From Octopus sinensis (Eukaryota), in contig NC_043000.1 of the NCBI RefSeq assembly GCF_006345805.1, forward strand, positions 163,432,001 to 163,496,000: a stretch of 64,000 bases of DNA. The letters are read 5' to 3'. The position numbers and the translations under genes were made by a program. The notes beneath the pieces were generated by a model. It saw only the letters and a program-made list of their open reading frames with translations, did not search any database and was not told the origin of the DNA. Shown piece after piece: positions 16,182-16,389 of this stretch. Each line of letters starts with the position of its first letter. Position 1 is the first letter of the stretch.

Positions 16182-16389
16182 TGACCGCGTGTGTACCGTT
16201 GGCGGTTTTTTTCCCCCTCTGTCTTCCCTTCTCTGGATCTTTCTTTTTCCTATGTTTCTGACGAAGAGCTCCGCTCGAAACGTTAAACCCTCCTTCTTTC
16301 CTTCCTTCCTGAGCGTCCAATAATACTATATTTGTTCCACGTCCTCGAGTTGTTGTGTTTTCTCTTTATGTTTTCATGTTTGGAATAAC
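16182..16389 (+). mobile_element. ~200-bp hammerhead-bearing element, copy 3 (intact core)
   Basis: Homologous to copies 1, 2, 4 and 5; between (TA)n tracts. Confidence 0.9.
16254..16288 (+). ncRNA. Minimal type I hammerhead ribozyme motif
   Basis: gttt CTGACGA a gagc-tcc-gctc GAAA cg TT aaac: stem I gttt/aaac, stem II gagc/gctc, palindromic loopless stem III (AACGTT), GUU triplet. Confidence 0.8.

Follow-up and report, generated by a model that had tools for sequence, protein, structure and literature searches.

Minimal hammerhead ribozymes (min-HHRs) occur in the pseudo-LTRs of metazoan Penelope-like elements (PLEs) as type I motifs with a 4-bp helix I, an unpaired base between positions 9 and 10.1, a G10.1-C11.1 pair, and a palindromic 15.2-16.2 pair without a loop III. 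They are found as very many dispersed single motifs, with 2,000–9,000 copies reported; a motif on its own did not cleave, and dimers did so weakly (PMC4209133). Non-LTR retrozymes, in turn, are defined by tandem units, canonical type I ribozymes, and circular RNA; those of animals are non-coding, non-autonomous, ~200 nt in length, and equipped with a type I hammerhead, a PLE origin and mobilization have been proposed for them, and monomer-rich families have been described (PMC7229834; 10.64898/2026.07.22.740005). Two further systems are PLEs proper. The Poseidon element PAc of Anolis carolinensis carries a hammerhead ~90–105 nt upstream of a fixed 3' end (PMC11167929), and non-autonomous PLEs such as MRC1 of Chlamydomonas are non-coding, moved by PLEs, biased toward microsatellites, and inserted with no discernible target duplication (PMC8557442). 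The role of the PLE hammerheads is still open (PMC8557442, PMC11167929).

The subject of this report is a 208-base non-coding repeat with a small central hammerhead ribozyme motif, dispersed as single copies within TA microsatellites in a 64-kb window of Octopus sinensis DNA (the whole stretch analyzed). It has the min-HHR features listed above, including the dispersal as single motifs, but its helix II is 4 bp long versus 7–8 bp in the Schistosoma min-HHRs, its copies probably number ~10^5, many times the 2,000–9,000 reported for the min-HHRs, and its motif sits in a unit of defined length with shared ends and no linked ORF found (compared with PMC4209133). With the animal retrozymes it shares size, lack of coding capacity, a type I hammerhead, dependence on other elements, and a proposed PLE origin; it differs in having no tandem units that we could see, a minimal ribozyme, ends fixed away from the cut site, microsatellite targeting, and a large core-variant subfamily (compared with PMC7229834). 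The distance between hammerhead and fixed 3' end resembles that in PAc, as do, in the mechanism proposed below, the AT-rich targets and the dispensability of cleavage for insertion. Unlike the element, PAc is autonomous, its ribozyme overlaps the start of an ORF, and its initiation site is AC-rich, compared with a GU-rich 3' end in the element, none of whose window copies shows a 30–40-nt tail variant (compared with PMC11167929). The non-coding nature, microsatellite bias, and absent target duplication of the Chlamydomonas elements are likewise shared, as is, probably, the movement by PLEs, whereas those elements are described as lacking canonical hammerheads and favoring (CA)n or (C)n, and their pseudo-LTRs, head-to-tail arrays, and known partner have no counterpart in the element (PMC8557442).

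A blastn search of the whole window with the full-length copy at 16182–16389 (plus strand), in which the core (CUGACGA) and the GUU cleavage triplet are intact, returned all five copies at the places given by the first-pass annotation (E values of 1e-107 to 1e-68) and no sixth family member. Three more full-length copies lie on the minus strand. That at 1256–1457 (motif 1353–1387) belongs to a subfamily marked by the core change U4C and carries an extra G5A and G16.2A, both at CpG; that at 5869–6073 (motif 5971–6005; 5' flank (TG)n) has an intact core and represents a third, more divergent subtype; and that at 61828–62033 (motif 61929–61963) has a private U4A and a GUA triplet. The copy at 62091–62259 (plus strand; motif 62127–62161), also of the U4C subfamily, lacks the first 36 nt and has one helix II mismatch. 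Pairwise identity among the five ranges from 87.5% to 95.8%, and together they make up 1.5% of the window. Their 3' end is common to all (the 16182 copy has one change there), and the 5' ends of four, spanning three subtypes, fall within 2 nt of one another; the "fixed ends" previously ascribed to the repeat therefore hold throughout at the 3' side and, with the 62091 copy starting 36 nt late, in four of five copies at the 5' side. The copies at 61828 and 62091 stand head to head, with ~57 nt of degenerate microsatellite between them. One member of this inverted pair is truncated, and because the two belong to different subtypes (93.5% identity), separate insertions are as likely an origin as a PLE-type inverted, 5'-truncated neighbor.

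To estimate abundance, contigs from public runs were mapped on positions 16170–16401 at 82% likeness. Nine of the 24 listed runs, from four organisms, contain at least half of the element's sampled words; 21,148 and 16,978 contig pieces from two DNA runs (X3 and X2, respectively) match the element, as do 5,306 and 193 pieces from the contigs of two runs guessed to be RNA (X7 and X20). Summed depth reaches ~5 million in the core, whereas the longest pieces have medians of 47 and 35; the resulting depth ratios are 4×10^4 at the 5' end and 1.1–1.4×10^5 in the core, with the reservation that summed contig depth is not the same as copy number. The window density (five copies per 64 kb; 95% interval 25–182 per Mb), multiplied by an octopus genome size of 2.8 Gb (PMC13282606), yields 7×10^4 to 5×10^5. 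These two rough routes suggest a genomic copy number of the order of 10^5, and the very high copy number anticipated by the first-pass annotation is thus supported by the counts of contig pieces.

The same contigs define the unit. Summed depth in X3 rises ~12-fold, from 0.17 million (16170–77) to 1.94 million (16186–93), and therefore the unit has a 5' boundary, which is a feature of the family. This boundary is not unique, since a group of contigs has a 5' end longer by ~8–10 shared nucleotides (50 contigs in X3, 27 in X7, and 58 in X2); among the 24 of 532 loose 5' ends listed, agreement extends over the last 8–10 nt alone, with TA-rich sequence beyond. Depth at the 5' end is ~40% of that in the core, which, together with one truncated copy in five, fits some truncation. 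Head-to-tail copies are absent from the window (none of five), and no joint from 3' to 5' end occurs among the 15 of 17 joints listed. One X7 contig joins 16369 back to 16189, at a depth of 9.8 versus ~240,000 locally (~0.004%). Tandem units separated by long stretches of (TA)n would go unnoticed in such a contig-based test.

The 20-nt 3' flanks are TA-rich in all five copies, each ranking in the top 1–4% of the window, with a joint chance below 1e-7 if the flanks are independent. On the 5' side, three copies have a TA-rich flank and one has (TG)n, while the flank of the truncated 62091 copy is mixed, so the TA-rich flanks that had been attributed to every copy are found on the 3' side in full and on the 5' side in three of five; all four full-length copies have a microsatellite of some kind as their 5' flank. 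No target duplication is visible at the copies.

Outside the ribozyme we looked for features of known classes of mobile elements. The longest ATG-initiated ORF on either strand of the five copies encodes 45 aa, and the element thus has no coding capacity; terminal inverted repeats are absent (1–3 of 20 end-to-end matches in each of the five copies), as is AATAAA. ARAGORN detected no tRNA in the element, no A box lies at a usable distance, and the one sequence resembling a B box belongs to the hammerhead itself. All four full-length copies have a T4–T7 run at position 24–25, at which Pol III would terminate on the ribozyme strand. The internal Pol III promoter or small-RNA head of tRNA-, 5S-, or 7SL-derived SINEs is therefore absent (no ARAGORN and no Rfam match), and the earlier description of the repeat as free of Pol III boxes, terminal inverted repeats, poly(A), and ORFs stands. 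An internal Pol II promoter was considered and is not supported: the longer 5' form of the element resembles an initiator motif, and a downstream element is present on the opposite strand alone, at position 43–46, which is not promoter spacing. A downstream promoter element of this kind is named for LINE and Penelope elements in PMC2377424.

The hammerhead is a 35-nt minimal type I motif at 16254–16288 (plus strand), delimited by published criteria (PMC4209133). It consists of helix I (16254–57 paired with 16285–88; 4 bp), the core (16258–64, CUGACGA), an unpaired A between positions 9 and 10.1 (16265), helix II (16266–69 paired with 16273–76; 4 bp, closed by G10.1-C11.1), the segment GAAA (16277–80), and a palindromic C15.2-G16.2 without a loop III. 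The predicted cut, at the GUU triplet, falls after 16284, that is, after position 103 of 208, dividing the element into parts of 103 and 105 nt. The motif thus displays four marks of the min-HHRs (short helix I, unpaired base 9/10.1, G10.1-C11.1, and palindromic 15.2-16.2), and its central position is as first described. A single copy of a sister family (~158 bp; 17236–17393, plus strand) has the same hammerhead layout and (TA)n on its 5' side. In all six sequences helix I is 4 bp long and the 10.1-11.1 pair is G-C; the loopless C-G at 15.2-16.2 is present in four of the five copies and in the sister family, the exception being the 1256 copy with its G16.2A, and a CUGANGA-type core is intact in two of five. 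A strict structural descriptor found four sites in the window (three copies and the sister family) compared with 0–1 in eight Markov controls, and a pattern of the hammerhead segments matched four of five copies and the sister family compared with none in 100 shuffles. Rfam gave no match to the motif at the gathering threshold or at E ≤ 10. A canonical type I hammerhead with contacts between loops 1 and 2 is absent, the motif being minimal, with a 4-bp helix I and no helix III.

Pairing in the stems is retained in 97.9% of cells across the five copies. Changes in helix I among the six sequences comprise one compensatory and two G-U changes; the sole two-sided change is the compensatory C-G for G-C of the sister family, which lies within the shuffle control (71 of 500). 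The sister family also has a different loop II and an A6U core change, and it shares with the element a block downstream of the ribozyme. Stem positions in the public runs vary about as much as the core CpGs, and the claim that the stems are largely kept is thus valid for the five copies rather than for the public runs. The linear RNA fold of the element is not better than that of shuffles (z = +0.76), the circular fold is no better than shuffles in two of three copies, and a rod-like form is not above shuffles. The minimum of a two-ribozyme cofold (−22.5 kcal/mol) is not a double hammerhead, for which a partial model (helices II and III only) gives −10.9 kcal/mol; this result neither favors nor excludes cleavage as a dimer.

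The five cores read as the first-pass annotation had listed them (CTGACGA twice, CCAACGA, CAGACGA, and CCGACGA), and it had proposed that the repeated lesions might reflect selection against cleavage-competent copies. The 1256 and 62091 copies form the most closely related pair (95.8%), with changes at 16247, 16259 (U4C), and 16371 and a 3-nt gap in common. The U4C change gives rise to a CpG, whose decay produced the G5A of the 1256 copy; the U4A of the 61828 copy is private to it. Given the shared ancestry of U4C, the three changed cores require two U4 events and one CpG decay, and the lesions lose their force as a sign of selection. In the DNA runs U4C accounts for 35.7% (X3) and 36.2% (X2) of depth, which identifies it as a subfamily mark; in the window copies it travels with 16247C. 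Its share in the two guessed-RNA runs is 44.6% and 69.3%, compared with those DNA values in the same organisms, but 16247C, to which it is linked, is likewise enriched in these runs, and X7 shows less CpG decay throughout. The difference is a weak hint that U4C RNAs escape cutting, which subfamily age or a small number of expressed loci explain equally well. U4C lowers hammerhead activity considerably in vitro and still permits viroid infectivity (PMC3088659); by analogy, it would be expected to weaken, not abolish, cleavage in the element.

We then compared the core with its surroundings. Variation at the core CpG guanine G8 is 4.9% (X3) and 5.1% (X2), and at G12 11.6% (X3) and 4.4% (X2); in X3 and X2, respectively, the mean is 5.7% and 6.1% at the remaining CpG positions of the ribozyme and 4.8% and 6.0% at CpG positions beyond it (range 0.9–11.0%), for a comparison drawn from 28 of the 40 variable positions listed, out of 63 in all. 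By the per-kind tallies for X3, no more than two unlisted A positions in the stretch reach 2%, and hence three or more of the five core adenines vary by less than 2%; no core adenine is among the 40 of 63 variable positions listed; C3 and G5 could be among the other 23. An excess of core decay is thus rejected for the CpG positions (4.4–11.6% in the core versus 0.9–11.0% outside the ribozyme), which change at the background rate, and this comparison, suggested by the first-pass annotation itself, goes against its reading. After insertion, the core is neither mutated more nor preserved better than its surroundings.

Several other elements in the window bear on the mobilizing machinery or the target. 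The 3' remnant of an endonuclease-bearing PLE lies at 23844–25520 (plus strand), flanked on either side by (TA)n. It encodes a CxxC linker and a GIY-YIG domain, the latter at a Pfam E value of 3e-4 that falls short of the curated cutoff. It is 63% identical to a protein bearing a reverse transcriptase, the two relatives named among its 12 matches come from Argonauta and Octopus, in keeping with an octopod host, and its 3' region contains a hammerhead-like motif with a non-canonical core (25348). The ends of the element have no significant similarity to this remnant, and the 7–8-nt matches to its last 60 nt (to 25520), a candidate end link, were rejected, since 10.6–64% of 3,114 background windows reach them. 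On the basis of sequence comparison, the remnant is apparently not the element's partner; it shows that PLEs of the same (TA)n target habit were active here. No autonomous PLE with sequence of the element was found in the window, whose PLE remnants gave no match to it. Exact-pattern scans of metagenome, viral, and prokaryotic collections, which are unlikely to contain octopus DNA, yielded no loci.

A fragment of a second type of GIY-YIG PLE (1561–1800, plus strand; Pfam E = 0.008) lies ~100 bp from the 1256 copy across (TACA)n. A palindrome in (TA)n at 26300–26615, with arms 87% alike, resembles an inverted pair of PLE ends and has one hammerhead-like motif with a canonical core per arm (26456, minus; 26497, plus). 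Five long palindromes with arms 82–98% alike (10643–10813, 11031–11320, 11548–11879, 16661–17077, and 37389–37836) contain no convincing hammerhead. Within a duplicated segment, the same CUGAAGA...GAAA motif occurs twice, at 45306 and 46879 (minus strand); its helix II is 6 bp long, and neither a helix I nor a cleavage site is evident. An abundant repeat of ~250 bp is found at 21309–22115, 31588–31846, 33201–33482, 44567–44821, 46128–46395, and 50392–50648, with three tandem copies at 21320–22099 and the others dispersed, often beside (TA)n. Finally, a frameshifted LINE at 57214–61041 (minus strand) encodes an endonuclease, RVT_1 (E = 3e-30), and zf-RVT, with part of the endonuclease region present twice (59301–59711 and 60304–61041).

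We consider it probable that the element is a non-autonomous derivative of a PLE pseudo-LTR, which a PLE protein acting in trans would copy from RNA that has not been cleaved; the link to PLEs is drawn from the type of motif, the target habit, and the geometry. Because Pol III transcription of the ribozyme strand would end at the T run at position 24–25, we propose that Pol II transcribes the copies, for the most part by reading through them. The ribozyme, without a helix III of its own, would cut only as a dimer or with the help of protein, so that most of the RNA would stay whole. A GIY-YIG PLE protein would nick (TA)n and begin reverse transcription at a constant position, 105 nt downstream of the ribozyme cut, and this would set the fixed 3' end. 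The cDNA would continue past the ribozyme and take in the upstream microsatellite that had been transcribed along with the element; its annealing to the target repeat would leave the 5' end nearly fixed, create no visible target duplication, and place microsatellite on either side. Since cleavage would not be needed, a U4C master could succeed, founding about a third of the family, after which the core would decay like other DNA. In such a scheme a piece of pseudo-LTR with the ribozyme and the initiation site would have become self-propagating, which would account for fixed ends without a promoter, for the small differences at the 5' junction, and for the success of the U4C master. The 105 nt from cut to 3' end fit the geometry of the anole PLE, in which reverse transcription starts 111–118 nt into the ORF and the ribozyme cuts at +26, 85–92 nt away; in vitro, with purified protein, AT-rich DNA is cut, uncleaved RNA is the main substrate, and hammerhead mutants are without effect on insertion (PMC11167929). 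PLEs with a CxxC linker are biased toward insertion into (TA)n (PMC8557442).

It is less likely that the copies are stubs of full-length PLE RNA cut at a strong stop, or solo pseudo-LTRs, that do not propagate themselves, an explanation we regard as doubtful. Animal min-HHRs are mostly single motifs and probably related to truncated PLEs (PMC4209133), PLE insertions are mostly 5'-truncated (10.64898/2026.07.22.740005), and the one truncated copy in five and the reduced 5' depth agree with stubs. Such stubs are difficult to reconcile, however, with four copies of three subtypes that start within 2 nt of one another, with the ~12-fold depth step at the 5' boundary, with 5' loose ends that, in the 24 of 532 listed, share nothing but their last 8–10 nt before TA-rich sequence, and with the lack of a PLE 3' UTR upstream of any window copy. 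We judge it highly improbable that the element is a non-LTR retrozyme, in which tandem arrays elsewhere would give rise to cut 208-nt monomers, then to circles and reverse transcripts, with the window copies as monomer offspring. Its size is within the 170–400 nt of retrozymes and its motif is of type I (PMC7229834), retrozyme families can be nearly all monomeric and derived from PLE pseudo-LTRs (10.64898/2026.07.22.740005), the X7 contig joining 16369 to 16189 is of the kind expected, and arrays spaced by long (TA)n would break in contigs and be missed. Yet no copy of the five is tandem, none of the 15 of 17 joints listed runs 3' to 5', and the depth of 9.8 for that one contig compares with ~240,000; the fixed ends lie far away from where the ribozyme would cut and are neither permuted nor extended beyond unit length; a third of the family carries U4C; neither the linear fold (z = +0.76) nor, in two of three copies, the circular fold exceeds shuffles; and described retrozymes carry canonical hammerheads, the minimal ones being set apart as PLE-type (PMC7229834). 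Membership among the retrozymes fails on both defining features that the data cover: no tandem units were seen, and the ribozyme lacks the canonical type I form. The first-pass annotation had offered a PLE-mobilized element or a retrozyme: a high-copy PLE-type hammerhead element of defined length in (TA)n is supported, and a tandem or circular retrozyme is not supported.

Equally hard to credit is mobilization by a LINE (RTE, CR1, Dong, or L1/Tx1), the repeat being SINE-like and (TA)n serving as its tail, in the manner of the hammerhead SINE-like repeats of Schistosoma. Defined length and dispersal are indeed SINE-like, LINE remnants are present in the window, octopus genomes contain many unclassified SINE families (PMC13282606), and SINE-like elements with hammerheads exist (PMC6765202). 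The element, in contrast, contains neither a tRNA nor a usably placed A box, has a T run early in the ribozyme strand, does not match the LINE remnants of the window (E limit of 0.1), has microsatellite on its 5' side too, and carries a ribozyme of the PLE minimal type that is central rather than 5'-terminal. A bolder form of PLE-driven copying, which we hold to be unlikely, is a "SINE" of ~10^5 monomeric copies that would home between (TA)n tracts with no promoter of its own, in which intact-core RNAs would cut each other in trans as dimers and U4C would have spread by escaping this cutting.

The literature searched contains no description of this family or of an octopus hammerhead repeat, although Repbase, Dfam, or the O. 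vulgaris library may list it; the O. vulgaris annotation reports 190 Penelope-like families (6.83%), and its supplement makes no mention of ribozymes (PMC13282606). Dispersed min-HHRs, monomer-rich PLE-derived retrozymes, and non-autonomous PLEs have already been described, and the element, as a probable derivative of a PLE pseudo-LTR, is a large new example and no new mechanism, notable for the size of the family and for its U4C subfamily. For genome annotation, a repeat of this type would probably end up among the unclassified SINEs or unknown repeats. With its intact-core and U4C subfamilies, a very large family consisting of little besides the ribozyme and its flanks makes it possible to ask whether cleavage favors copying, impedes it, or makes no difference. 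If the PLE-driven "SINE" reading is true, the family would rank among the largest groups of ribozyme-bearing repeats in any genome, and if cutting in trans also proves true, the family would amount to a genome-scale natural experiment on the purpose of PLE hammerheads.
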